From: Candidatus Latescibacterota bacterium
Lineage (GTDB): Bacteria; Latescibacterota; UBA2968; GCA-2709665
Assembly (NCBI GenBank): GCA_963667175.2
Contig: CAXXXF010000013.1
Span: 1 to 64,000, forward strand
Length of the DNA: 64,000 nt
Reading direction: 5' to 3'
Part shown: one piece after another, positions 47,425 through 64,000 of the stretch
Numbering within the stretch: the stretch's first letter is position 1
Layout: the number at the start of each line of letters is the position of its first letter
The notes under the pieces: generated by a model
The model's input: the letters and a program-made list of their open reading frames with translations, nothing else
What the model was told of the DNA's origin: nothing
Database searches by the model: none
Program-made: the position numbers and the translations under genes

Positions 47425-48240
47425 ACATGGATTGACCTGCCTGCCTGTCCAGCCGGCGCAGCCAGGCGGGCTGAAGCAGGCGAGGCAGGCAGGACGGACA
47501 GGACGAAAACCAAAAGCGCGGCAAAAACACGAAAGAACGAAATTCAGAAACTACGAAACACGCGAAAAAAACGAAATATCCGTGACTGAACCCCATAAAC
47601 CCTTCATGAAAACATCAAAAGGATCTTACTTGGATCGACAGGATGGGCAGGATAAAGGCGCAGTCGCCGAGAAGACGCACAGTTTTGCAGGCGATCGCGG
47701 TGAACCCGCTTCCCGCAGGCTGTGGGACAAGATGCTTGAAGGCATATCGGTCGCCATGTTCCGATCAAGATAAGGGAAGTATTGCGGTTTGCCAAACCCA
47801 AGTCCACGGTCCTGATTTGGCATCGCGAAGCGGTCGGCCCGGCGGCCTCGTCAGGATGGGAATCTGGCTGGAGAATCCAATGGTAGAGGCAGGTTTCAAA
47901 CCTGCCCGCCGCTGCCTCAATCCGCATTCCGACAGCAGAACGCTGATGCGGGCAGACAAGAATGTCTGCCCGCCTGCCGCCTGCCTGCGCCGCTTCGCTT
48001 CCCGCGGCAGGCAGGCCCCACCTTCAACAGTTGCTTCCTCAGGATGACAATGTTGGAGAGCGGCCGGCCTGTCATTCTGAGCGCAACGAAGAATCTCCCG
48101 TCTTCTGGGTCGTCCTGAACACAGCAACGCGGAAAACACATTGGCGCGGAGACCTGATTGGCATCGCGATGCGGTCAGACAATCGGATGACGGTAGGAAT
48201 CCAGCCACTGGTTTTCACTGACCACTGGCCACTGCTGTTC
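47425..48240. repeat. Mosaic of several REP-like palindromic and short repeat families
   Basis: CCTGCCTGCC..GGCAGGCAGG (47436-47493); GACAGGATGGGCAGGAT (about 47637-47653); ACGAAA-rich tract; GTAGAGGCAGGTTTCAAACCTGCCC (47883-47907); GCGGGCAGACAAGAATGTCTGCCCGC (47948-47973); TGTCATTCTGAGCGCAACGAAGAATCT (48070-48096). Confidence 0.7.
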
Positions 48241-49531
48241 GCTTCAATGAGGCCGCGATCAGATGATCGCGGAAATGCATGCCGATATCATCAATGCGCG
48301 CCGGCGCGCGACCGCTTCAATGAGGCCGCGATCAGATGATCGCGGAAATGCTGCTTGGACTTCCGCACTGCGAGCGAAGACCGTGTCGCTTCAATGAGGC
48401 CGCGATCAGATGATCGCGGAAATTCCGCAGTTGCGGCAACTGTGGTCCGCGGACGCAACCCGCTTCAATGAGGCCGCGATCAGATGATCGCGGAAATATA
48501 GACCGGTATTTAAATAAGGACAAGACATTTAATCGCTTCAATGAGGCCGCGATCAGATGATCGCGGAAATCTGTTACACGCCAGAGCCCCATGTCGGCTC
48601 GCAAATTTTCGCTTCAATGAGGCCGCGATCAGATGATCGCGGAAATCGTACGCTTCGTTACGAGATTCATTCCTCCCCCTCATCGCTTCAATGAGGCCGC
48701 GATCAGATGATCGCGGAAATCCGCAGAGGCCGAGAAGGCAAAGGCTGCTGCAATACGCGCTTCAATGAGGCCGCGATCAGATGATCGCGGAAATCCTTCA
48801 GCTTCTGTGATGCCCTGGCAAGACCCGACTTGCTTCAATGAGGCCGCGATCAGATGATCGCGGAAATGCGGAACACCGCGGACACGCTCCGCCTGAAGGA
48901 GGATAAGCTTCAATGAGGCCGCGATCAGATGATCGCGGAAATGCGGAACACCGCGGACACGCTCCGCCTGAAGGAGGATAAGCTTCAATGAGGCCGCGAT
49001 CAGATGATCGCGGAAATAAAGCATTCCTCACAGCCTTTGTCCGCTTCCCACCATGCTTCAATGAGGCCGCGATCAGATGATCGCGGAAATGTGGTTAGAA
49101 ATCTGGTTCCTGAGATCGCTGAAATGGAGCTTCAATGAGGCCGCGATCAGATGATCGCGGAAATTGCACGGCGGATGCGGAAAAGCTGGCCGTCCAACTG
49201 CTTCAATGAGGCCGCGATCAGATGATCGCGGAAATGTCCGGATATGCGGGGAACGTGACGGGGGATACGTCGTAGCTTCAATGAGGCCGCGATCAGATGA
49301 TCGCGGAAATATGCTCGCAGTGCAAAGATACCGGCTGGTATTGGGTGCTTCAATGAGGCCGCGATCAGATGATCGCGGAAATTGGCGGATTCCATTGTGA
49401 AGCCCAAGGACAATGACGGCGCTTCAATGAGGCCGCGATCAGATGATCGCGGAAATTTTATCGCTGGACAGTCCGATTCCCAACGCTTCAGCCAAGCTTC
49501 AATGAGGCCGCGATCAGATGATCGCGGAAAT
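48241..49531 (-). CRISPR. CRISPR array, 18 identical 36-bp repeats and 17 spacers (35-40 bp), type I-G (I-U)
   Basis: Plus-strand repeat GCTTCAATGAGGCCGCGATCAGATGATCGCGGAAAT (transcribed ATTTCCGCGATCATCTGATCGCGGCCTCATTGAAGC, hairpin CCGCGATCA/TGATCGCGG). Starts at 48241, 48314, 48388 ... 49421, 49496. Orientation from the ATTGAAGC 3' end and the leader next to cas1. Confidence 0.98.
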
Positions 49532-49713
49532 AGCGTCTACCCTACACAGCTTATTTTCAACAACTTGCCATCGCAATTGCGAGCAGCCGCCTCCATGATG
49601 CGGGTACGCGAATCTTTCATAGACACCTCCCTTATCTAAGTGATTGTAAATATTTCGTTTGTGCAATGCGAGCATCCCCCGGGAAATTTTCATCGCCTCG
49701 CCGTTCGTATTGC
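49532..49713 (-). promoter_or_regulatory. CRISPR leader
   Basis: AT-richer non-coding segment between the cas1 stop and the first repeat; IHF-like TTTCAACAACTTG (49555-49567); direct repeat TGCGAGCA (49578, 49667). Confidence 0.8.
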
Positions 49714-51520
49714 TCAGCGCGTCACGAAAACCGGATAACTGCCCAACTCCCCCTGGAGCGTCTTTGCGAGTAGGCGGGCCTGGATTTCGAGGAGTCGTCG
49801 ATAACTGACCCGGTAGTCGAAGAGCGGATGCGTGACCAGTGTATTCATACGGGCCTCATACGCACGGAAGAATCCTTTTCGACCCGCGGGCGTCAGCGAA
49901 ACCGCGTCCCCCGACAATACGAAGTCGCCTTCCGAGACCATCTTCGTATTCACCGCGCTCAGCACGGCCGAGTCCACGATCAGGGGTCGCAACGGTTCCA
50001 TCAGGTCCAGCGCAAGCGCCGGGCGTCCCTGGCGCGGCTGATGATAGAAGCCTACCATCGGGTCGAAGCCGACCGCGTAACAGGCAACGGTCAGATCCTT
50101 TGTCAGGAGGCTGTAACCGAGCGACAAAAGGGCATTGACCGGGTCTCGCGGGGGCCGGCGGTTTCTGGCGCGAAAATCGAAGGTGAACCCGGTCTCGCCG
50201 CCCTGTTCTTCCTCGCGTTTCAACATCCCTCCGAACAATCCGAAATAGATGCGCGCCGCCCAGCCTTCTACTCCCAACAGTTCCTCAAGCGATCCGGCTG
50301 TCTCCGCCTGATCGACAATCCACGACAACTCACGCAACGCCGCCCGGGACGGTTCGACGTGATTGCGGCGCAGCATTGTCCGTTGATTGCGAATCTTGCC
50401 TGCCACGAGTTCGCGGGCAAGACGCAGGCAGTACCCGGGTTGGTCTGAAAGACGGAACTGCGCCTGTCGCAGAAAGACGTTCTTCGTGTTCAGTCCCGAA
50501 GTGACCCCGTAGAACCACCCTCCCTGAGAGAAGTAGCAGATAGGAATCTCCGCGGTACACAGCGCCTGCACGGCCTGCGTCGTCATCTGGACGCTGCCCA
50601 TCAGGCTGACCTGACAGATTTCGTTGATGCGCACGTCCTGAACGACCTTATCGCGCTCTTTGACCCGGAGTACCCCGTTGCTCTTGCCCACGCGAAGTCT
50701 CTGAGAATTCAGATACAGCGGCTTCCTGTCCGTCCGGGGCGCGACCATGCGCCGCACTTCCTCCGGGACGGCATTGGGACTCTTCCCCGCGCCGGGAAAC
50801 AGTTCAAGTTGCCGCGCAACGTCGGTCTCGCCATTGGCCTTGAGTTGCCAGGTCTCATCGGGCATGCAGATGCCGACGAGGGAGCAGCCGGGACATTTCG
50901 GCGAGTCGATGAGCGGAAGCGGCCTCTCGCCGGCCTCGGCCGTGGCCCATGCGTCCGCGATGGCTCGCTCGGCTTCCTCAATCGTCTCTTCGTCGAACGG
51001 AACGCGCACACGCTGGCGCGTCTTGTGGTAGAAGATGACCCCTTCGTCGCAACGATACCCATTCGCGCGCAACACGAGCGCCTGAACGGCGAGTTGAACG
51101 CGGTCGCCCGGCCATGCTTCGACACCGTCCTCGCCGTCCATCGGCCGGCCGCGTTTGTAATCGACGGGCGTTGCCCTTCCCTCCGAGAACTCTGCCAGAT
51201 CGAGCTTGGCGATCACTCGATGGTCATCCGACGACAACGTTATCGAGCGGGCGACAACGGGTTTTTCGCGCGCTTCGTCCGGCGGCGGCGCCGGTTGTGT
51301 TTTCCTGTCGACGCGTTTGTGCTGCGTTTCGCCCTCGGCGGTGTACTCGTTGTGGACGAAGACGCCCTCCACGTGCTCGAAGTAGAACAGCCGCGGGCAA
51401 TACACGTACTGGTTGATCATGCGCGCCGGGAGATAGTCCGGCAACGGACGACCTGTCCGCGAAGGATTCTCGTCGGGCAGGCGGGACGGGGAGTGTCCCT
51501 GAGCGGGGGGAGCGCTCATC
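49714..51520 (-). CDS. cas4-cas1: Cas4-Cas1 fusion (type I-G)
   Basis: Cas4: YVYCPR, KLD, PVDYKRG, QL, CPGCSL..C Fe-S cysteines. Cas1: GKIRNQR, LLGVEG.AA..YF, RRPPRDPVNALLS.GY, GFYH, LALDLMEP.R. Confidence 0.95.
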
Positions 51521-51536
51521 ATGACGCTAACCTCCG

Positions 51537-54508
<2,972 letters not shown>

Positions 54509-54624
54509 GGGAGCACCTTGGGGCGCGTCGGGTCCATCGCCGTTTCAATTATCCTATTGAGGCTTCACTGTGCTCTGCCGCAACCAAATATGTGGTAGTG
54601 ACCGCGCGCACATCAAACGGTGTA

Positions 54625-54715
54625 ATCACTCCCCCCTTGAGGGGGAGTCGCAGAAGCCGAGCCGTTGCCCTGAGGTTGTCGAAGGGCCGGCGAAGGCTGA
54701 TGCGGAGGGGGGATT
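54625..54715. repeat. CTCCCCCCTTGAGGGGGAG-type palindromic intergenic repeat
   Basis: Hairpin ACTCCCCCCTTGAGGGGGAGT; internal CCTGAGGTTGTCGAAGG unit; closing GGAGGGGGGAT. Confidence 0.6.
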
Positions 54716-55005
54716 TCAACGCCGTACCGTATCCAGGTAACATGAACAATTATACGTGCATTTTGCGCCGCAGTCTTACTGTAAGATTCTATATCGTATT
54801 AATATAGGTGCCGTTTACAGCTTTCAAAGCAATGGATTCAATGAACCCAGAGCATCGAATCGGTCTTCCGTGGCGTGGTCAAAGCCCTTTGGGTTCCACG
54901 GCCGTCGTATCGAAGCATGAAAGCTCCTATAACGCGCCACTGAACTCCTATACGAGCCCTGGCTGTATAGTGTCGTGTTCTATTTCACTCAAATACGTTC
55001 CCCTT

Positions 55006-55167
55006 TCAGCAAGCAAGATGGCCAAGAAACTCCATAAATCCCTCGATGGCTTTCTGTTGTCTGTAATCCTCGATCAGACGCCAAATCCAATACACGATCA
55101 GCCCGGCGGTTCCCACCCCTAACGAGACCGCAAACGATCGACACAGCCAGACCTTGAATTCCGCCAT
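55006..55167 (-). CDS. Small putative single-pass membrane protein (53 aa), below the ORF-track cutoff
   Basis: Manual translation MAEFKVWLCRSFAVSLGVGTAGLIVYWIWRLIEDYRQQKAIEGFMEFLGHLAC*; GGGGG purine run upstream; AT-rich promoter-like DNA 5' of it. Confidence 0.45.
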   Translation of the reverse strand: MAEFKVWLCRSFAVSLGVGTAGLIVYWIWRLIEDYRQQKAIEGFMEFLGHLAC

Positions 55168-55469
55168 CTGTCGCCCCCATTTTCATAAGTATATATATTT
55201 ATTATTGTCATAAGTATACAGATAAATCGCACCTCAAGACACACTGAATCAAGTACATCCTGCATGAGGAATTGGGGGCCCTTCGGCGCCGACCCCCTCC
55301 GGCAAAGCCATGCTTCGTTCATGTTTAACTTAAGTTAAACATAACGCATCCCCAACATGCGTTAAACGTCGGCATCAGGCATTACGGCTTTCCACCGCTC
55401 TCCGCGGCGCGACGATTCTGAACGACGTCCTCAGGTTCAGCGGCGGAGTTATTACCAGGAACAGTAAAT

Positions 55470-55497
55470 AGTGGTCAGTGGTCAGTGGTCAGTGGTC
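55470..55497 (+). repeat. Heptamer tandem repeat (AGTGGTC)x4
   Basis: Direct reading; related inverted copy at 48205-48240. Confidence 0.8.
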
Positions 55498-55751
55498 AGA
55501 AAGAGCAGTTGTCCGCTTCCGTTTATTTTCATGAACTGCAAATAGCCGACATCCAGGCCCACCAAAGAAGAGTGGGAGGATGTAAACAATACGGTGCTCC
55601 CCGTAATAACGTCCACCGGCCCGCCGCGATAGCGCTGTCGAATGTAGGCTTGCTCTTCCTCAAACGTCATGCCGCTGATCTGCTCGCTAAGTTTGTCCCG
55701 GATCAAGCACATCATCCGGACGGCATCGAACGGCTTGTTACTGATTGCCAA
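55482..55751 (-). pseudogene. Small helical protein or remnant resembling short genes found beside PIN toxins
   Basis: N-terminal KPFDAVRMMCLIRDKLSEQISGMTFEEEQAYIR looks like a conserved small protein; the C-terminal half looks like read-through. Confidence 0.4.
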
Positions 55752-55760
55752 TGCTCGGTC

Positions 55761-56699
55761 TCACACTGGGACAGCAACGGTAAAGTTACTGTAGTACTGG
55801 TTTTGTTGGATGCGCTGACTTCGATAGACCTCTTCAATCCCTCGCCTGAAAAGGGATGAGCGGGGTATGGGATCTTTAAAGAGATCGTCGAGGGTCAGCA
55901 GAGATTTCACCGTTCCCAAACTCACCAGAGGTGTCCAGATCGGCCAGACGAAATAAGTCTGTCTCCTACCAACCCGGCGAAATCCCGTGGTTCGTGCTTG
56001 ACTTCCAATCAATACCGTAGGAAACCACCGTAATGCCTCAACCGCCAGACTGTTTGCCGCTAACATGGTGCCTTGTCTTGACTTGCTCGGACTTGGATCG
56101 TGCCAACGCAAGGCATACCGCTGATCTTCAATAGGGTCCCAACGAAGACTGCTATACCCTTTGTCCTGGTAATCCCAAGAATGAAAGAGAGTGCGTTGAA
56201 TGTGATCTATACCAACCTTTTTTCGCATTTCCCTGGCATAGAACGGTAATCCTTGTCCCGCACTGTCTCCGCTACGTACCATCCTGAACTTCGAATCCTG
56301 GAACTGTCCACTCTTATCATCGGGATACAGTTCGGTTCCGAAACCAGAGAAAAAATCGGCATCCCGCCGATCGGCAATGGATGAACTGCGCTGAACATCT
56401 CGCAGTTTTTGCGAAAATTTCTCGGCGTCAAAGGGCATCCTGTTGTCGATATCAAAAGCGGCCATTGAGGATTTCTGCAGCGTCTCCAAGAGTTTTTGCG
56501 AGAATTTCTGCTCATCGTCGTCACAACCCACCAGGGATGGCCTCCAACCGCCTTCTGCTTGTTGCCAGCCAAGGCATATTTCCGGGAATACATCTTGCAA
56601 GACAACCGCAGTGCCAACGGCCGCGAGGAATCCGAGCGGGTTGCTGCCGTCGAGTCCGTTCAGCAGAAGACCTGAAGCTGCTGATTCATTTGCCGTCAT
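55761..56699 (-). CDS. csb3: Type I-G large subunit Cas8g2 (Csb3)
   Basis: LNGLDGSNPLGFLAAVG, LRWDPIEDQRYALRW.DP, ANSLAVEAL, FVWPIW, RGIEEVYRSQR; overlaps the cas3 stop; GGAGGAG RBS. Confidence 0.8.
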   Translation of the reverse strand: MTANESAASGLLLNGLDGSNPLGFLAAVGTAVVLQDVFPEICLGWQQAEGGWRPSLVGCDDDEQKFSQKLLETLQKSSMAAFDIDNRMPFDAEKFSQKLRDVQRSSSIADRRDADFFSGFGTELYPDDKSGQFQDSKFRMVRSGDSAGQGLPFYAREMRKKVGIDHIQRTLFHSWDYQDKGYSSLRWDPIEDQRYALRWHDPSPSKSRQGTMLAANSLAVEALRWFPTVLIGSQARTTGFRRVGRRQTYFVWPIWTPLVSLGTVKSLLTLDDLFKDPIPRSSLFRRGIEEVYRSQRIQQNQYYSNFTVAVPV

Positions 56700-59658
56700 G
56701 TGTCTCCTCCAGATCGCTCTGCCGCCAGTCGGCGAGTCGCAGCAGGGCTTCCAGCCAGGCCAGGCCCCACCAGCCATAACGCCGCACCAGCCTCCAGTAG
56801 CGATCCGCGACGCCAGAATCGAGGCGCTCAAGGTTAGTAGGACCGGACCAGTGCATCCGATGGCCACTCAACTCGAAATCTACATCCACGCCCTGCTCAT
56901 CAAAGACCACCGGCGCGAACGGTCGACAGTGACCGTGATGGCTGGCTATCAGATGTAGAACCAGGTCGCGCAGACCGTCATCTTCCGGCAAAAGCGCCGT
57001 CGCACGTTCGGCCAAGCGCACCGAAAGCAATTCGTGCCGCCCTCCTTTCGGATACCCAGAGTCCTTACGGGCGCGCTCGCGAACAGCAAACGATCTCGGC
57101 AACCGAGCAGACTTGGCGAATAGCTCTCCGCCCAGCCAAGAAGCTCCGCCCTGCAACCAGGACTGGAATCTATGATCGGCCTTGCCCACGTCGTGCAACA
57201 GGCCCGCCCTGGCGATGGTCTCAACCAGGTCCTTCGGCAAGCCGCAACCCTTGGCATGACAGCGGGCGAACGCTTCGACACCGGGAAGGTGGAGTTGAAG
57301 CTTGACGGGATGCCCGTTGCGGTTCGAAATGCCGGACGCGGCGGCATCGTCCTCGTCGCTGAAGCTGTCGGCTTCGTGGGCGAGTTCAGGAATGCGGCGG
57401 CGTCCGACGAGGACGATACTTTCGCCGACAACTTGGTAGGCGTGGTCCAGTCTGGAGCCGGGGTACTCCCGGGAGAGTTCGTTAGCAGCCTTCCACAGCC
57501 AAGATTGTTCGGCTGGGTTGGAAAGTTCCGCCAGAAGGTCGTGCAGGGCATCGGTAATCACATCCGGGTCGTCGTCGAGCTTCCATTCCATATCGTTCAG
57601 CAACTCACGAGCGGTTTCCTTGGCCGTATCGGTATCCGGCCAAGCGTCCACCAACTTCAGGTGTATGCGAAGTATGGGCTTGGCCCTCGCAAGACGGTAG
57701 GCGCGGTCACCTACGTCCAGGTCCGCGTCCGGCGGCAGGTCTCCGAGTTGACGCGGATCCCCCGGATGGTTGGCTGGGATCACAATAACATCGCCGGGAC
57801 GAATCTTCTTGGGTTCCGCCGTGATGTCCTCCCCAGCTTCCGTCTCGGCCCCCCGCCACCGCACGACCAATCGTTCCACTGTGGACGAACCATTCCCGCT
57901 GACGTCGGCCTGAGTGCCTATTCCTTCCACATCAGCGCTGTCGTCTAGAGCGTCCTCTCCGGCTAACCAACGCTTGAACATACCGACCGGCACCGGGAGT
58001 GTCTCACTGCTGCTCGGCGGGCACAAGGCCAGAAGTCCCAGCGCCGTTTTCTTTTCTTGAACTAAGTCCATATCGGTGCGCCAGCAGACCTGAACATCCG
58101 CCGCGCCTTCACGGGGACCGTGCAGAAACGGAGCCAAATCGGGCGAAGGATTTGGCTCCGGCGCTGTCTGCGCCAAGCAATCGACGTGGGCGGGAAGCAT
58201 CACCGGGGCATCGGCGGAAGGTGCGTTGAGCGAAGAGTCGCCGTCCGGCAGATAGGCGATTCCAAAATCGACCTCGCCATTTTCGTTTTTGTGCTCGTTG
58301 AGCCAATTCCAAGTCTTGGTAAGGGCTTCGCCATACACGGGATCATCACCTTTGTCGCCTTTTTGGTCGCCGCGTATTAGAACCGCCGCTCGCGCATCAA
58401 TTTTCCGTCCCATGCGATTCAACCGGCCAAAGCGCTGGCGCAGGGCGTCGAGGCTCGCGCACTCCGTGACAAGACCATCGAAGTCAAGGTCGGCCCCTAC
58501 TTCCAAAGTTTGAGTGGCAACTACCACTACAGGCTTTTCCAGGACACGTTTTGGGGAGTTGCTGGAATGGAGATGCTGCAAATGCTGCTCAACTACGGTG
58601 TCCTTATCGACAGGGCGCATCCGGCCAGTGAGCAACACCGCTCGGTTTCCGTACTCAGCGGCCAACAGCCGATATGTCTCCCGCGCTGTGGCAACACGAT
58701 TGACGAACACCACGATAGCTCGGCGTTCTTCGTTGACCAGCCCCGATGCGGTTTCGGCCAAAGCACCAGCCAGTACGCTTGTGGCCTGCTTTCCCCTGGC
58801 TCTTTTGATCGTCTTCAAGGTTGCGGGCTTGCGCGCCAACTGGCGGCATCCTAGCGTATGGGCAGGATCGCGGCCTTCGTCGGATTGATCCTCAAATACA
58901 TCATCTATGCCCGGCGGCGGCGTGGCTGACATTACCACGGGATAAAATGGACGACCGAGCGGAGCGTGCGCCCATGTCTGGAAACGTCGGACCGCTTGCA
59001 GGGTCTGTAGAAACGGCTGTGCACAGTGCGCCTCATCAAGCAGAATCAGGCTGTCGTTAGCGACGAGTCCCGCGTAGACCGGCCAGGCGCCGTGGCGGCG
59101 CCCATAAGCACGGAACAACAAGCGGGAGCCGATCTGATCGACGGTCGAGGCTACCACCAACGGTTGCAGAGGATTGCGCGCCCACCCTTCGGACCGGTAC
59201 ATCCCGCCGCGCAATACATGGGCAGTGAGCGGCCAGACATCATGGGAACCGTTCATCTCAGCACCAGCGACCTGCCGGAGATTTCCGGCGACAGTATTCA
59301 GAATGCCCTTCTCAGCCTTCTTCAGTTTCTCGGCCAAACGGCGGGCGCGTTTATGCGCCTCATCAACGATCACGCGCCGGTCTACCACGAAGAAAATGCG
59401 GCGAGGTGCGGTGATGGTCTGTTTCCGGGACAGGCGGGACGCCTGGGCCGCTAAGGCGAACACTGCAATATCCAGGCACGCGGTCTTACCGGAAGCCGTT
59501 GGCAGGGCTATGGCCTCCGGCCATGGAGCTTCTTCCCGTTCCAGGACTCGATCCGCCAACGCCTGCTGCCAGGCGAAGGGCGGATGGCCCCACAACGCGG
59601 CGAAGAATTCGGCGAAGTGGGTGCTATTCAGGTTGGTTTGTCCCATATGTATGCCCAT
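56686..59658 (-). CDS. cas3: Type I-G Cas3: helicase with C-terminal HD nuclease
   Basis: PFAWQ, LPTASGKT, VVDRRVIVD, STVDQIGSRLLF, LDEAH, MSAT, TQTLEVGADLD, QRFGRLNR. C-terminal LLHDVGK, RHE, SHHG, YGWWGLAWLEALLRLAD. Alternative start 59646. Confidence 0.95.
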   Translation of the reverse strand: MGIHMGQTNLNSTHFAEFFAALWGHPPFAWQQALADRVLEREEAPWPEAIALPTASGKTACLDIAVFALAAQASRLSRKQTITAPRRIFFVVDRRVIVDEAHKRARRLAEKLKKAEKGILNTVAGNLRQVAGAEMNGSHDVWPLTAHVLRGGMYRSEGWARNPLQPLVVASTVDQIGSRLLFRAYGRRHGAWPVYAGLVANDSLILLDEAHCAQPFLQTLQAVRRFQTWAHAPLGRPFYPVVMSATPPPGIDDVFEDQSDEGRDPAHTLGCRQLARKPATLKTIKRARGKQATSVLAGALAETASGLVNEERRAIVVFVNRVATARETYRLLAAEYGNRAVLLTGRMRPVDKDTVVEQHLQHLHSSNSPKRVLEKPVVVVATQTLEVGADLDFDGLVTECASLDALRQRFGRLNRMGRKIDARAAVLIRGDQKGDKGDDPVYGEALTKTWNWLNEHKNENGEVDFGIAYLPDGDSSLNAPSADAPVMLPAHVDCLAQTAPEPNPSPDLAPFLHGPREGAADVQVCWRTDMDLVQEKKTALGLLALCPPSSSETLPVPVGMFKRWLAGEDALDDSADVEGIGTQADVSGNGSSTVERLVVRWRGAETEAGEDITAEPKKIRPGDVIVIPANHPGDPRQLGDLPPDADLDVGDRAYRLARAKPILRIHLKLVDAWPDTDTAKETARELLNDMEWKLDDDPDVITDALHDLLAELSNPAEQSWLWKAANELSREYPGSRLDHAYQVVGESIVLVGRRRIPELAHEADSFSDEDDAAASGISNRNGHPVKLQLHLPGVEAFARCHAKGCGLPKDLVETIARAGLLHDVGKADHRFQSWLQGGASWLGGELFAKSARLPRSFAVRERARKDSGYPKGGRHELLSVRLAERATALLPEDDGLRDLVLHLIASHHGHCRPFAPVVFDEQGVDVDFELSGHRMHWSGPTNLERLDSGVADRYWRLVRRYGWWGLAWLEALLRLADWRQSDLEETHDGK

Positions 59659-61102
59659 CGACCGGAACGAACTGGCCGAGCCCGAAGTGTGCGCCTACTC
59701 CCATAGGGCGTGGAATAACAACCGGATGATCGAATTCAAGCTCGAACCAGCCGGCAGCTCTCCTGGTCCAGCGCCACGTGCCACGTTGGTAGAGGTGGGT
59801 GCGAACCGGCGTGAGCCTGCCGAGCGACCCTGGGCCGGACGTCTGCGTCGCTCGGGGGCGTGCGGCCGTGGTTTCTTCGACCATTCTCTGAAGCTGCTCG
59901 GATGGCGTCGGTCCGCGTCGTCCTCGACGCGCGTGCAACGGCGCTAGGAAGGGCGTCAGGGATCGCCAGCACCGTGACGGCGTCGGCTCCGGGTATGTCT
60001 CGATCACACGCTCGACGACCACGAGGATCGGATAGTCTTCATCGCGGAAGATACGCTGGACTCCAAGCAGGGCGTCCAGCTCTCTTTGGTCGATGCCATC
60101 TGAGCCGTCCGGAAGCCACACAGTGCATCCCTTCAGGTACCCGTCTCCCGTATCAGGCTCCGGCAACCAGAACGCGTGCCGATGCCCCTTTGCGACGTTG
60201 CCATCAGGCTCCCGGCCGGTGAGCCGGCGGGACGGTACTCCAGCGGCGGACTCGAAGCGTGAGGCGGCCTGATCGCGAATCTGCCGAGCTACGCGTACCA
60301 GCTCCGACAGGTGGATCGGAACACGGCGGAACAGGCCGAACCGCACCGCTGCAACGCGTGGGCGCTCCTCTGACGAGGCTACTTGGCGTCGAGCAAGCCG
60401 GGGACGAACGAGCATCGGCGGCAACGCGTAGTCGATCCAGTCCGTGTTCGGAGGTCGCTTTCGACCCTCGACGATCATTGTTTGGACGAGATGGTCTCCA
60501 CCGGCTTCTCCCGCCCAGAGGTCGGGGGCGCAGAAGGCGTCGCGGGTGACCAACACTCGCCGCCGGATTTTGTTCGACAAGGGACGGCCGTCTGCCGGAG
60601 CTACCCTGTGCAAGTGCCTCGGAGGGGCTTCCACAAGCGCGAGGCGGGCCCTCGACTCCGCTCGCCCGAAGTAGGTCATGCGCGCAAGCAGAAGCGGGAG
60701 GCCGCTCCGCTGCCGGGCCGAGAGGGATACATCATAGTCGAAGCAGAAGCATGCGCCGTCATCGCCTTCCGAGAGCACCGCGAAGTGATCGAAGTGTAGA
60801 ACGCGCTTCGGCTCCTTGGTCTCGACGATGACGGGCTGGTAGTACGGAATCTCGGCGAACGACACCGGGGGCAGCCACATCGCCGGAGGCGAGGCCCGGC
60901 CGAGTGCTTGCAGCAGGTCGTCTCGTTCCACTTCCGTAACAGGGGGCGGGTTGGCGTCGAACCAGACAGCGGCCAGACCGCGCAGCAGCCGCCACGGAGA
61001 AGGGGGCCACTCGGGTCCCGCCATCGCGTGCTGCGCCTCGCCCCAAGGATGCGCGTGGTAACGCCCCGACAGCAGGCTCACTTGGACGATAGTGCGTGAC
61101 AC
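59624..61102 (-). CDS. csb2: Csb2 (Cas5-Cas6 fusion) of type I-G
   Basis: GRYHAHPWG...EWPPSPWRLLR.L, YFGRAES, GHRHAFWLP, WRSLTPF, C-terminal G-rich loop GVGAHFGLGQF. Confidence 0.92.
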   Translation of the reverse strand: MSRTIVQVSLLSGRYHAHPWGEAQHAMAGPEWPPSPWRLLRGLAAVWFDANPPPVTEVERDDLLQALGRASPPAMWLPPVSFAEIPYYQPVIVETKEPKRVLHFDHFAVLSEGDDGACFCFDYDVSLSARQRSGLPLLLARMTYFGRAESRARLALVEAPPRHLHRVAPADGRPLSNKIRRRVLVTRDAFCAPDLWAGEAGGDHLVQTMIVEGRKRPPNTDWIDYALPPMLVRPRLARRQVASSEERPRVAAVRFGLFRRVPIHLSELVRVARQIRDQAASRFESAAGVPSRRLTGREPDGNVAKGHRHAFWLPEPDTGDGYLKGCTVWLPDGSDGIDQRELDALLGVQRIFRDEDYPILVVVERVIETYPEPTPSRCWRSLTPFLAPLHARRGRRGPTPSEQLQRMVEETTAARPRATQTSGPGSLGRLTPVRTHLYQRGTWRWTRRAAGWFELEFDHPVVIPRPMGVGAHFGLGQFVPVDGHTYGTNQPE

Positions 61103-61105
61103 GAA

Positions 61106-62233
61106 CTACTTCCCGTAGGTGACGGTGGTCTCAAGTCCCAGTTCGAGTTCTTTCAAGAGTTCCTCAAAGATCGGCGGGTCCGAGAGGAGGCCAGTCAGGC
61201 CGCCGTCACATGGAGGTGTCACAAGCCTCTCCAGATCCAACGGGCTATTGTCCCCGAACGGGGCGCCCTGCTTCGACCCTGACCAACTCACCGACCCGAC
61301 CGCCAAGGAGCAATCGGCACGCAGACGGAGGGCGCCCATCGTGTCACCGGTACGGGCGTCGAATGCCGGCCCGTTCGTGAGGAACCGATGGATCTTCCAG
61401 AGGGCCAACGCGAGCAGGAAACGCTGGGCCGCGCAGTTGCCGGAGCCGTCGTCGGAACCCGCCTCGTCGGGCGCCGCGACAAGCGACCGTTCCCGAAGCG
61501 CCAGCACGTCGATCTCGAAGGTGGCCTGAATCGACTCGGAAACGTAGCGCTGCTTGTGAGCAATGCTCTGGCCCTTGTTGCTCTTCTTGGCAGCTGACGA
61601 CTCGGGCTCGATGCCGTCGACCTTGACGAGCCCATAGTGGACCTCGCCGTCCTCTGCGAGAGTCGCCTCCAGCCGCGCGTGGAGCAGGCGGGCAGCACGG
61701 AGGCCGACGGCCTCCCACTGCATGAACTGGAAGCCGTGCAGTATCGCGGCCGGATCCAGCGCGAACACGGCCTGAGTGAGTTTCTCGCGGCCGTCCAGCG
61801 GCCAGGTCTTGCCGTCGAGGCGGAGGTGCTCCTCCAGCTTCTCCTGTAGGGTCGTGCGGTCGTTCTTCGCAGGTTGCGTCCCGTTGACATCGCTCTCGAG
61901 CACGTATGACGAAGCGACCCGGTGGGGTTCGGTGAGGTTCGTCGCCAGAATACGGTTCTTCTTATCCATGACCCGGATGACAGGCAGTTGTGCGGCGAGC
62001 GGTTCCCGCCACACTCCGGGGGACCGCATGCAGACGGCCTCCAGCCGGTTGGCCATGCTCTGCTCGCTCTCAACCAAGCATCGGCGTTTCCCCTTGCCGT
62101 CGGTGTAGACACAGGCTCCAATGTCCGGGAACCCCGTCGGCTGGAAGAACGAGCCGTTCGCAAGGTGAAGCTTGGCCGAGATCAGGACGCGGTCTTGGTC
62201 CAGGAGTACGTCCACGAGGTTGTTGTCAGACAT
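61106..62233 (-). CDS. csb1: Cas7 backbone subunit Csb1 (Cas7g)
   Basis: FQPTGFPDIG, LVESEQSMANRLE, EPHRVASSY, DPAAILHG, LRLRADCSL. Confidence 0.92.
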   Translation of the reverse strand: MSDNNLVDVLLDQDRVLISAKLHLANGSFFQPTGFPDIGACVYTDGKGKRRCLVESEQSMANRLEAVCMRSPGVWREPLAAQLPVIRVMDKKNRILATNLTEPHRVASSYVLESDVNGTQPAKNDRTTLQEKLEEHLRLDGKTWPLDGREKLTQAVFALDPAAILHGFQFMQWEAVGLRAARLLHARLEATLAEDGEVHYGLVKVDGIEPESSAAKKSNKGQSIAHKQRYVSESIQATFEIDVLALRERSLVAAPDEAGSDDGSGNCAAQRFLLALALWKIHRFLTNGPAFDARTGDTMGALRLRADCSLAVGSVSWSGSKQGAPFGDNSPLDLERLVTPPCDGGLTGLLSDPPIFEELLKELELGLETTVTYGK

Positions 62234-64000
62234 GAGCAGTCTCCATTTCGGGGTTGGTGTCTGATTCGCGAGAAGTGGACGGCACAAGCAGGGTGTCTGC
62301 GAGGCACGCCACACTTTCTTCTGAAACCGGAATGAGCACGGCCGCAGCCATCAGCTCTGCCTGCTTGGATGTGAGACCGACGTCGGGTTGCGCCACGCTC
62401 TTCCCGCTCGGACGAACGTCGTCCGGCCAGTTACCCGGCAAACCCGCTATACGCAGTCGGCGCAGGGCGGCGTCGCAGGCAGCTGCAACCGAGCTCGCGG
62501 TACCGGTGGCGATGCCTCGCGGCACGTCACCGTCCATTGGTCGCCGCTCGCCCGGCGTCTGTCGGGCCGACAGCTCGAGCCAGAGTCGAAGTGCGGCGTA
62601 GACAGGCCCGGCCGGTCGATTCGCAGAAGCCGGCGGCGGCGCATGTCCACTCCCATCCAGTACCAGAAAGGCCAGGAAGTAGCGTTGTAGATCCTTCACC
62701 GGCACGTCACCGCGGAGCAGAGCGACCACGTCGGCGGCGGCGGCGGGACGAGTTCCCCTTGCCGGAAGCACCGGCAGGCTCGCGGTATCGAGCCACCTGC
62801 GCCAGAGCAGCGTCGCAAGCTCTCGGGCCGGATTGCGGCCGGGTTGCGGAACGCGCTGTGCAGGCGGAGGGTCTGGAACGCGGAGTCCGCGTTGGCCGTC
62901 ACTTGTCACGGACATGAGCTGTTCGATGACCGGCATCCGGACCATCTGCCCATTGTCATCCGGCACGGCGGCCCAGCCGAGGGAAGCAAGGGCCCATCCG
63001 AGACGGGCGGCAGGTGAGTCCGCCAGAAGCTCCGACAGCACCCGTCCCCACGCGCGCCCTTCCAGCAGCGGTACCGGGCGGAAAGTCGCTTGAGATCCAG
63101 GTCGCTCCGATACCGTCGTGTACAAGGTGACTTGGAGATTCCACAGCGCCTTCAGCACGTTGACGCGGTTCGCGTCTTCAGGCACGTCGATGGCGGCGTG
63201 GACAGTCTCATCGAAGCGCGTCTTGGCCAGTGCCAGCTTCTCGGAGCTGTCGTCCACCCTGCTCAACCGGAACTTCTCGATCCATCCCGAATCGTCGAGC
63301 GGTGCGAGGAGGAACCGCAAGCTGTCCCGTGCAGCCGACGTCGGCCCGACCTTTGTGGCCCCGCGGGAGACCGCTTGGTTCTGAGGGGCCTTCTGGCCGG
63401 GTTTCCTCGGTTCGAGGGCAAAGCGATGAAACGCATCGAACGCACCCGTGATCGCCCTGCTGGCGACGGCTCGTCGGAAATCGGCTGCACCGGAAGCGAA
63501 GTCCCTCTGACCGACTCGTGCCTGGAAGCCCCGCACTTGCGCCTGGAACTCGGACAGCGTCCTGGGATGGTCGCTGCTCCAAGTCGGAAGGAAGACCTCC
63601 TGCGTCTCTACCATTGAGCCCTGGGCCCGGATGACAGAGCCCGGAAGAACGAATGGAAACGCAGGATAGGAGCGGCGTGAGCCGCGTGGTGACCTGGCGG
63701 CGCCACGCAGGAGCAGCAGGCCTCGCATCGCGAGGATATAGTCCCAGTTGCTGAGTGGCTTCTTGGCCTCATGGATCCAAGCGGCCCCGGTGGCATAGCG
63801 CTTGATACCCTCGGGGAAGAGTAGGCCACCACCTCTCTTCAATCGGCCCTTGGGCACGCGTTCTTCGCTGAAGACCGCAGAATCGATGTCGGCCTCTGGA
63901 GCCTGTTTGGCAGCTTCCCGAAGGGTATTGAATTGGTTCGCTCTCCCGCCAATAGCTTGCCCCCAGCTACCGAGGACGGGATTCGGTTGGGGCAGTTCTC
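62226..64000 (-). CDS. csx17: Type I-G large subunit Cas8g1 (Csx17), 5' end outside the window
   Basis: Frame stays open to the window edge (ELPQPNPVLGSWG...). Motifs NWDYILAMRG, AFPF, EVFLPTW, AADFRRAVA..AF.RFA, RLGWALASL, AALRRLRIAGL; overlaps the csb1 start. Confidence 0.82.
   Translation of the reverse strand, partial: ELPQPNPVLGSWGQAIGGRANQFNTLREAAKQAPEADIDSAVFSEERVPKGRLKRGGGLLFPEGIKRYATGAAWIHEAKKPLSNWDYILAMRGLLLLRGAARSPRGSRRSYPAFPFVLPGSVIRAQGSMVETQEVFLPTWSSDHPRTLSEFQAQVRGFQARVGQRDFASGAADFRRAVASRAITGAFDAFHRFALEPRKPGQKAPQNQAVSRGATKVGPTSAARDSLRFLLAPLDDSGWIEKFRLSRVDDSSEKLALAKTRFDETVHAAIDVPEDANRVNVLKALWNLQVTLYTTVSERPGSQATFRPVPLLEGRAWGRVLSELLADSPAARLGWALASLGWAAVPDDNGQMVRMPVIEQLMSVTSDGQRGLRVPDPPPAQRVPQPGRNPARELATLLWRRWLDTASLPVLPARGTRPAAAADVVALLRGDVPVKDLQRYFLAFLVLDGSGHAPPPASANRPAGPVYAALRLWLELSARQTPGERRPMDGDVPRGIATGTASSVAAACDAALRRLRIAGLPGNWPDDVRPSGKSVAQPDVGLTSKQAELMAAAVLIPVSEESVACLADTLLVPSTSRESDTNPEMETAHV

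Follow-up and report, generated by a model that had tools for sequence, protein, structure and literature searches.

The locus described here is a type I-G clustered regularly interspaced short palindromic repeat (CRISPR) locus of a Candidatus Latescibacterota bacterium, located on contig C13 (CAXXXF010000013.1) of an assembly that comprises 18 contigs and 5.5 Mb. The window, i.e., the whole stretch of DNA that was analyzed, covers positions 1–64000 of this contig and carries the 3′ two-thirds of the locus. The characterized Csx17 system, with which a part of the locus can be compared, is that of Thioalkalivibrio sulfidiphilus (PMC9638904; PDB 8b2x). The canonical order of genes in Csx17 systems is given as "cas3, cas8g, cas7 and csb2" (PMC10482374), Cas3 is described as an integral subunit of the I-G Cascade, the CRISPR-associated antiviral defense complex (PMC9638904, PMC10482374), and the N-terminal domain of Cas8g in 8b2x is reported to contact Cas7.1/7.2 as well as the CRISPR RNA (crRNA) (PMC9638904). 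In Bifidobacterium, Cas3 is reported to be required for the function of Cascade (PMC9335239), and a protein named "Csb3", which may belong to either family NF049934 or TIGR04106, co-purifies with Csb1, Csb2, and crRNA (bioRxiv 10.1101/2022.08.19.504415). The I-G locus of B. moukalabense is described as having "no cas8u2", with cas3 positioned between cas5/6 and cas1/4 (PMC7284854). Several effector complexes acting on shared arrays are described for Pyrococcus furiosus (PMC4436667).

Arrangement of the locus

The locus combines known I-G variants in an unusual way and consists of three complete type I-G interference modules on one strand. In the order of transcription, module C (csb1_C-csb2_C-cas3_C-ext_C, contig 81501–74864) is followed by a pair of AAA-ATPase genes, by csb1_B-csb2_B (contig 70668–67034), by cas3_B-csx17-csb1_A-csb2_A (contig 67030–59619), and by cas3_A-ext_A (59658–55761), with a second AAA-ATPase pair and then cas2, cas4-cas1, and one CRISPR array located 3′ of ext_A. 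Eight genes are contiguous, in the order csb1_B-csb2_B-[cas3_B-csx17-csb1_A-csb2_A]-cas3_A-ext_A, and we consider it probable that the bracketed genes are a whole Csx17-type module that was inserted at the overlap of the csb2 stop and the cas3 start of an outer I-G cassette, with the third module upstream. No cas genes were found further upstream of module C when the contig was read beyond csb1_C. The genome contains three Cas3g genes, all of them at this locus, and two ext genes.

Membership in type I-G follows from three copies of Cas3g with the C-terminal HD domain (TIGR02621; 729, 626, and 768 bits, cut-off 400), three of the Cas5-Cas6 fusion Csb2 (TIGR02165; 99, 293, and 212 bits), and three of Csb1/Cas7g (TIGR02570), two of which score 61 and 76 bits, with csb1_C recognized by phmmer and by its position in the tree; the cas4-cas1 fusion, cas2, and the 36-nt repeat described below are likewise those of type I-G. 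The frames of the twelve effector genes are all open and normal in length. Each of the three Cas3 proteins keeps the HD motif, Walker A, and motif II; the last varies (DEAH, DEVQ, and DEVH), and DEVQ is also found in the other Csx17-type Cas3 proteins.

The part of the locus between positions 55761 and 64000 contains five large open reading frames (ORFs) on the minus strand, all of them open throughout. The initial annotation read them as csx17-csb1-csb2-cas3 followed by a fifth gene labeled csb3, with the genes overlapping or abutting, and the ORF listing agrees with that order (overlaps of 14 and 35 nt). It also noted a lower guanine-cytosine (GC) content of the last two genes, and this is the case, as cas3_A has 60.5% and ext_A 51.0%, compared with 64.4% for csx17, 63.7% for csb1_A, and 65.2% for csb2_A. 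Across the eight genes, the four inner ones lie within 63.7–65.2% and the outer ones within 57.8–60.5%, except for ext_A. The proposal that two large subunits surround a single Cas7/Csb2 backbone is not supported, since cas3_A and ext_A belong to a cassette whose csb1_B and csb2_B are located 7.4 kb upstream. The suggested junction of a chimera at the csb2/cas3 boundary is a true breakpoint (59618/59619), although what it delimits is a whole nested Csx17 module and not two layouts sharing one backbone.

Nesting of the Csx17-type module

The six closest aligned loci (L013, L014, L015, L016, L058, and L069) carry csb1-csb2-cas3-ext without interruption, with csb2 and cas3 adjacent in all six. 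Their products correspond to those of the outer genes of the present locus, with csb1 71–77% identical to csb1_B, csb2 73–82% identical to csb2_B (and 786 aa long in several), cas3 69–76% identical to cas3_A (73–75% for L013–L015), and ext 72–79% identical to ext_A in five loci and 41% in L069; their identity to csb1_A and csb2_A is local only, or amounts to 24–36%. In blastn comparisons, the DNA of the six loci aligns up to contig position 67031 and again from 59618 (59616 for L069), at 72–81% nucleotide identity. Only 11–14 nt separate the two aligned blocks in these relatives, and the 7.4 kb between them on our contig (59619–67030), which remain unmatched, are exactly cas3_B-csx17-csb1_A-csb2_A.

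The right breakpoint lies within positions 59615–59622, homology to the uninterrupted relatives resuming at 59618, and the left one, defined by the same blastn comparison, lies outside the window at contig position 67031. In the relatives, the stop of csb2 and the start of cas3 overlap in the 4-nt sequence GTGA. In the junction alignment, GTGACTGAGT stays on the csb2_B side (left), and homology restarts at TGAA before cas3_A (right). An in-frame ATG (59658 or 59647) from the end of the insert serves as the start of cas3_A, whose first codons thus derive from the insert, and the TAG stop of csb2_A (59624–59626) falls inside this new 5′ end; measured on the longest ORFs, csb2_A and cas3_A overlap by 35 nt. 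All eight genes are intact. Transposon-like ends, a terminal repeat, or a target duplication were not detected, as no word of at least 9 nt is shared within ±100 nt of the junctions. Between contig positions 58500 and 68200, no promoter-like sites were found on either strand and no terminator-like sites on the coding strand, both of which are weak evidence.

With cas3_B, which lies upstream of them, the inner genes csx17, csb1_A, and csb2_A make up a complete canonical Csx17-type module. The large-subunit gene, csx17 (Cas8g1, minus strand), begins at contig position 64346 with an ATG that overlaps, as ATGA, with the cas3_B stop, and extends to position 62226, so that its 3′ 1775 nt (62226–64000) lie in the window; it encodes an intact protein of 706 aa and is not broken upstream, a possibility raised in the initial annotation. 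Its score against TIGR04113, 155.3 bits over model positions 179–714, is marginally above the cut-off of 150 and places it, narrowly, in the Cas8g1/Csx17 family; 76 relatives were found, five of which carry the Joint Genome Institute (JGI) name Csx17. The second cas3 that had been predicted upstream of csx17, outside the window, is indeed present there as cas3_B (contig 64343–66943, minus strand; TIGR02621, 626 bits). The gene for Cas7g, csb1_A (61106–62314, minus strand), matches TIGR02570 with 60.6 bits and PF09617 with 92.9 bits, its true start being probably downstream of the GTG at 62314, and is followed by the Cas5-Cas6 fusion gene csb2_A (59624–61102, minus strand; TIGR02165, 99.3 bits).

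Four other Csx17 modules (G041, G044, G015, and G043) all have the gene order cas3-csx17-csb1-csb2, and their best-matching paralogues at the present locus are cas3_B, csb1_A, and csb2_A. Phylogenetic trees place csb1_A and cas3_B with the Csx17-type sequences, with a Shimodaira–Hasegawa-like approximate likelihood ratio test (SH-aLRT) support of 100, csb1_A grouping with the Csb1 proteins of these four modules, whereas csb1_B and cas3_A are found deep within the clade of ext-type sequences; both trees were built quickly and contain some long branches. The trees are at odds with a shared backbone and, together with synteny, GC content, and the four other Csx17 modules, support the nested arrangement.

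The four genes of the inner module are the same, and in the same order (cas3-cas8g(csx17)-cas7(csb1)-csb2), as those for the Cascade of T. sulfidiphilus, and the two loci also share the C-terminal HD domain of Cas3g and the 36-nt length of the repeat. Unlike that system, however, the inner module has a divergent csx17 (155 bits against TIGR04113; four canonical Csx17 proteins share 23–24% identity with it), lacks its own cas4-cas1, cas2, and array, and is located inside another I-G operon. The locus is not a conserved feature of the relatives: a search for Csx17 gave one positive among 40 other relatives and none among the 14 genomes of the same genus; close relatives of the csx17 of the present locus (csx17_B) were not found in the 167 other genomes of the phylum, and a metagenome scan for the neighborhoods of its relatives gave 596 pattern matches, none of which was confirmed.

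The outer cassette, which is split between csb2 and cas3 by the 7.4-kb insert, otherwise resembles the compact loci of family NF049934, in which csb1-csb2-cas3-ext are followed by adaptation genes (54 of 80 loci; 69–82% identity to the genes of L013–L016), and the same holds for the layout of module C. The layout reported for Bifidobacterium looks the same as that of these compact loci, and the description of the B. moukalabense locus fits it (PMC7284854). The cas3_A gene (56686–59658, minus strand) encodes a Cas3g of 990 aa (TIGR02621, 729 bits) with Walker A, DEAH, and HD motifs present. The product of csb2_B (contig 67034–69394) and its orthologues are 786 aa long, and the family model matches them in two stretches, which suggests that csb2_B may carry a large insertion between its Cas5-like and Cas6-like parts.

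Corresponding genes of the three modules differ considerably. Identity amounts to 35% between cas3_A and cas3_C and to ~27% between cas3_B and either of these; it is 45% between csb1_B and csb1_C, 25–30% between csb1_A and either of these in partial alignments, and 25% between ext_A and ext_C. In module C, ext_C scores 298 bits on NF049934 and cas3_C 768 bits on TIGR02621. The paralogues of the three modules are old, and a segment with the AAA-ATPase genes, described below, is the only recent repeat.

Identity of the protein encoded after cas3_A

The fifth gene, ext_A (55761–56699, minus strand; longest ORF 55761–56867), encodes a protein of 312 aa. Its start is most likely the ATG at 56699, which overlaps the stop of cas3_A by 14 nt. 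The sole family match of ext_A at E ≤ 10 is NF049934 (adjac_Cas3_IG), "type I-G CRISPR-associated protein, Cas3-extension family", with 199.5 bits (cut-off 65), and both ext_A and ext_C (298.5 bits) exceed the cut-off and directly follow Cas3g. The model of the Csb3 family, TIGR04106 (cas8c_GSU0052, Cas8g2; cut-off 125 bits), has no match to ext_A at E ≤ 10 and none elsewhere in the genome; the model does work, recognizing with 156.7 bits a protein of 283 aa encoded directly after cas3g in genome G094. The label csb3 is therefore not retained for ext_A, although it was right in spirit, as the protein is nevertheless a short Cas8-like one.

An AlphaFold (AF2) model of ext_A, computed from a 70-sequence alignment, has a predicted local distance difference test (pLDDT) score of 93.2 and a predicted template modeling (pTM) score of 0.92. 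Foldseek gives a single PDB match to this model at E ≤ 0.001, to the Cas8g chain in 8b2x (E 4.8e-6, TMq 0.53, probability 1.0), followed by the weaker matches 7tr6_C (I-A Cascade, E 0.097) and then 8fcj_I (type I-B Cas8). In a profile comparison by hhalign, residues 2–265 of ext align with residues 3–282 of Csx17 (36-sequence alignment), i.e., with its N-terminal alpha+beta domain, with 87% probability and E 4e-6. The corresponding probabilities are 11–13% for ext compared with Csb3 and 22% for Csb3 compared with Csx17. A model of Csb3 (pLDDT 87.5) matches the same three Cas8 structures (8b2x, 7tr6_C, and 8fcj_I), more weakly. A complex prediction for ext_A with csb1_B (score 0.01, mark 0.32) has no bearing either way. 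The predicted fold and the profile comparison show ext_A to be a short protein of the Cas8g kind, a homologue of the Csx17/Cas8g1 N-terminal domain and a member of Cas8 at the level of the fold. Since the hhalign alignment covers only this domain of Csx17, ext_A lacks the bridge and the Cas11-like domain that Cas8g1 has, and its sequence places it in NF049934 and not in the Csb3 family. The expectation that both proteins of the locus would be Cas8-like is thus borne out, for csx17 by TIGR04113 and for the fifth protein by Foldseek and hhalign.

The Cas8g2/Csb3 (GSU0052) variant resembles the ext cassette in having a small (~280 aa) Cas8-like protein right after cas3g, as well as the same class of repeat (L099). 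It differs in that ext_A has no match to TIGR04106 and that the N-terminal domain of Csx17 is matched more closely by ext than by Csb3. The term "Geobacter type", applied to the Csx17 layout in the initial annotation, is misplaced, since the GSU0052 model, which bears a Geobacter locus tag, is that of Cas8g2, whereas the characterized Csx17 is from T. sulfidiphilus. One construct of the Cas8g2 variant has a source that we take to be Geobacter sulfurreducens. Its gene order is given as cas3-cas8u2-cas7-cas5/6 (PMC6547450).

Relatives of ext_A number 732 at E ≤ 0.001 in a collection clustered at 90%, nearly all of them unnamed, and the family forms 1350 clusters at 50% identity. Long matches are proteins of 1300–1460 aa with ext at the C terminus, and in eight of nine a match to Cas3g, above the family cut-off in five, precedes ext. 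In two loci, L069 and L086, cas3 is 73–76% identical to cas3_A, yet ext is only 39–41% identical to ext_A; DNA homology to L069 ends ~90 nt into ext_A, and the GC content of ext_A is 10 points below that of cas3_A. The Cas8-like gene seems to have been exchanged independently of cas3.

Neighborhoods of ext in other genomes

A search built on a 13-sequence alignment of ext yielded 80 loci that carry relatives of ext and come from many phyla, and their ORFs were classified by phmmer with the proteins of the present locus as probes. According to a strict script, ext is located directly 3′ of cas3g in 76 of the 80 loci. The exceptions are L027 and L029, in which the ORF of ext overlaps cas3 and the listing shows cas3 and then ext, L059, which is fragmented by frameshifts, and L071, the contig of which begins at ext. 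In 54 loci the genes are arranged as csb1-csb2-cas3-ext, in most cases with cas4-cas1 and cas2 next, and the layout cas3-ext-csb1-csb2, in which ext occupies exactly the canonical slot of Cas8, is found in 17; the other nine are cut at a contig end or have csb1/csb2 that were not recognized. From these counts, the ext-type cassette appears to be normally a self-sufficient I-G system, with ext as its sole Cas8-like protein.

Csx17 is encoded within the 10-kb flanks in only two of the 80 loci (L014 and L028). This count is based on probes from four canonical Csx17 proteins; csx17_B as the sole phmmer probe gave a false-negative result of 0/80. In two single-chromosome assemblies, G041 and G044, a Csx17-type module adjoins an ext-type one, directly upstream in the former and downstream in the latter, with one adaptation module. 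Stacking of I-G modules of the same subtype is therefore recurrent. These two loci resemble the present one in placing a Csx17-type module head-to-tail with a short-Cas8 I-G module beside a single adaptation module; however, they are side-by-side tandems, whereas here the Csx17 module is nested in the operon of its partner and a third module is present. Loci with both genes, for which the initial annotation had proposed a search, do exist, but the nested form is so far unique, being found in one of 81 ext loci. A literature search gave no description of tandem or nested I-G modules or of the NF049934 family, although the three size variants of Cas8g in Supplementary Figure S9 of PMC9638904 may include the ext family.

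Two further observations concern these neighborhoods. In G044 (L101, 14206–14544), a fragment similar to csb2_B is found between the csb2 of the Csx17 module and cas4-cas1; it may be the scar of a similar rearrangement between two I-G variants. A compact type III-like module is positioned between ext and cas4-cas1 in L013 (11083–15805), as well as in L069 and L078, with similar trios in L023 and L082. It encodes a 498-aa Cas10-like protein (palm2 and Csm1_B), Csm2, a RAMP protein, Cas_APE2256 (CARF-type), and a 316-aa protein with no match in Pfam. In these genomes, the partner with which the I-G cassette appears to have its array and adaptation genes in common is a type III module and not a second I-G module.

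Adaptation genes, array, and flanking repeats

The only adaptation genes of the locus lie downstream of ext_A on the minus strand. The cas4-cas1 fusion gene (Cas4g/Cas1g, 49714–51522; NF049935, 737.7 bits, cut-off 560) is the sole copy in the locus, and cas2 (~51537–51830; PF09827, 62.9 bits) is located in the same open frame as a truncated copy of an AAA-ATPase gene. This single frame (51537–53843) comprises a truncated AAA-ATPase_like region (residues 311–506) and Cas2 (residues 677–741), which means either that AAA and Cas2 are fused or that cas2 starts internally.

The CRISPR array (48240–49536, minus strand) has 18 repeats of 36 nt that read, on the transcribed strand, ATTTCCGCGATC..GATCGCGGCCTCATTGAAGC. 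It is one of two arrays in the genome and the only one on contig C13; the other, on contig C2, belongs to a different system and has a different cas3-like gene nearby. The repeat ends in ATTGAAGC, and the same class is found in more than 40 other I-G loci; the class (...CGCGGCCTCATTGAAGC) is common to loci of the ext, Csx17, and Cas8g2 types. Within positions 48832–48981, one repeat-spacer unit is exactly duplicated, forming two identical units of 75 nt.

Two AAA-ATPase_like genes are located in the region 51537–54508 (minus strand), the one at 52958–54508 also matching PDDEXK_9 and the truncated second copy running from ~52913. The segment 51770–54555 is a 90%-identical nucleotide copy of contig 70796–73580, i.e., a direct repeat of 2.8 kb found by blastn. 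Six of the eight AAA-ATPase_like genes of the genome (PF09820, mostly with PDDEXK_9) lie within 40 kb and flank each I-G module, their sites on the contig being 51770–54555, 70796–73580, 85791–86246, and 89954–90544. The family also flanks I-G cassettes in nine of the 80 other loci (on both sides in L069), as well as in G015. These genes could be substrates of recombination or CRISPR-linked accessory genes. The spacer between ext_A and the AAA-ATPase genes (54509–55760) has a GC content of 51%; its segments 55220–55451 and 55611–55742 recur downstream of ext_C (contig 74377–74607 and 74610–74740) with 85–89% identity, as a conserved sequence that is either non-coding or made up of small ORFs, and the ORFs 55482–55751 (89 aa) and 54808–55122 within it have no match in Pfam.

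Proposed working of the locus and alternative explanations

In the working that we propose, all modules would be co-transcribed and each would build its own Cascade, with Cas3 as an integral subunit as in the I-G systems studied so far, and with ext, where present, docked on Cas3 in place of the large subunit. Three separate complexes are expected, because each module encodes its own Cas7, Cas5-Cas6, Cas3, and Cas8-like protein. All three modules would load crRNAs from the single array, and a common pool of crRNA is plausible, since there is one array, one adaptation module, and a class of repeat common to the types of Cas8g. The outcome would be redundant interference by complexes with differing surfaces for reading the protospacer-adjacent motif (PAM) and differing surfaces exposed to anti-CRISPR proteins. 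The Cas3g-ext fusions fit this scheme, as ext would ride on Cas3 and take the position of Cas8. The situation would be reminiscent of P. furiosus, where more than one interference module also uses shared sources of crRNA; there, as described, the complexes belong to different types or subtypes, whereas here all three are of type I-G (PMC4436667). We can speculate, quite tentatively, that three I-G Cascades, one with a full-length Csx17 and two with Cas3-docked mini-Cas8 proteins that are 25% identical, share one array and one Cas4-Cas1/Cas2, so that immunity is multiplexed over several readers of the PAM and several targets of anti-CRISPR proteins, and that the juxtaposition of long and short Cas8g, which recurs in G041 and G044, is selected and not accidental.

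Two alternatives concern the nested arrangement itself. One Cas7/Csb2 backbone (csb1_A/csb2_A) might serve Csx17 and the cas3-adjacent protein alternately, giving two Cascades, as the five contiguous and co-directional genes of the window would suggest; csx17 and ext_A are both Cas8-like, and the I-G repeat and handle are conserved across the variants, so that some cross-compatibility is possible. This reading can be given hardly any credence, however, as ext_A and cas3_A have cognate csb1_B and csb2_B upstream, in a set of four genes that is contiguous in every close relative, csb1_A and csb2_A group with modules of the Csx17 type and not of the ext type, and in 78 of the 80 ext loci Csx17 is missing from the surrounding 10 kb. 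Alternatively, the assembler might have joined in a 7.4-kb Csx17 module of another organism or strain. The division of the assembly into 18 contigs with an estimated contamination of 4.75%, the GC content of the insert, which is above that of its flanks, and the lack of close relatives of csx17_B elsewhere in the phylum would be consistent with this, as would the public reads, of which two runs held 0.15 and 0.10 of the words and gave short contigs (90–99% alike) that cover parts of the inner module, none of them bridging 59619 or 67031. Against it, the two junctions coincide in the host sequence, where they share 1 nt at most and leave the overlap complete, cas3_A retains an in-frame start, and no repeat is present at the junctions at which an assembler could switch, so that two independent switches at non-homologous sites would be required; besides, Csx17-type modules adjoin ext-type ones in the two single-chromosome assemblies. 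A misassembly that restores so precise an insertion is unlikely, and we regard a chimera as highly improbable.

Two other alternatives accept the nesting and question its working. As the family name "Cas3-extension" implies, ext could serve Cas3g only as an accessory domain or an extension (for example, to regulate the nuclease) and not be a large subunit, the ext-type Cascades being devoid of Cas8, like type I-F2. Eight of the nine long matches are fusions of Cas3g and ext or fragments thereof, ext has neither the bridge nor the Cas11-like domain found in Cas8g1, and type I systems with no Cas8 are reported to exist (PMC12956352). Both fold and profile, however, relate ext to the N-terminal domain of Cas8g, which is the part described as contacting Cas7.1/7.2 and crRNA in 8b2x (PMC9638904), and ext occupies the slot of Cas8 in 17 of the 80 loci; as Cas3 of type I-G is itself in Cascade, a protein docked on Cas3 can also be a subunit of Cascade. 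An accessory role of this kind seems unlikely. It is similarly doubtful that a single module is active and that the others, without functional interplay, are cargo of an island prone to recombination, either newly acquired or in decay. In favor of this, the locus has one adaptation module and one array, the AAA-gene repeats that flank the modules suggest repeated recombination, and the locus is absent from the 14 genomes of the same genus that were searched for Csx17. Against it stand twelve effector genes that are open and of normal length, the catalytic motifs kept in three Cas3 proteins, and gene overlaps, suggestive of translational coupling, that are retained at the new junctions.

The interpretation preferred here, three I-G modules with one nested in another and ext as a short Cas8g, also has to face several observations that weigh against it. 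The name chosen for NF049934 by the NCBI curators refers to Cas3 and not to Cas8, and the Cas11-like C-terminal domain of Cas8g1 is absent from ext. The score of csx17 is only 5 bits above the cut-off of its family, with the first ~140 residues not aligned to the model, and cas3_C has a long branch that arises close to the root of the clade of ext-type sequences, the affiliation of module C being based mainly on ext_C and csb1_C. The Csb2 proteins are very different (492, 564, and 786 aa), and the expression of the modules, assembly of the complexes, sharing of crRNA, and processing of one repeat by each Csb2 are what we infer from sequence. The nested form is a single case among the ext loci, and no read or contig that bridges either junction was recovered.

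Implications for type I-G systems

The arrangement corrects a tempting misreading, in that what looks like one backbone with two large subunits consists of two complete systems of one subtype, the operon of the first being nested in that of the second. A further result is an identity, based on evidence, for a compact I-G variant that is widespread yet uncharacterized and consists of csb1, csb2, cas3, and a homologue of the N-terminal domain of Cas8g of ~310 aa, which is sometimes fused to Cas3. This identity bears on target recognition by type I-G systems, including the reading of the PAM, and on smaller Cascade-Cas3 tools for editing. If the proposed multiplexing is true, a possible reason for its selection could be that Cascades with a short Cas8, having no Cas11-like belly, may differ in the locking of the R-loop or in priming. 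The composite locus is a natural test bed for asking whether one pool of crRNA can serve several effectors of the same subtype, and whether such an arrangement would provide robustness against anti-CRISPR proteins or escape through PAM mutations.

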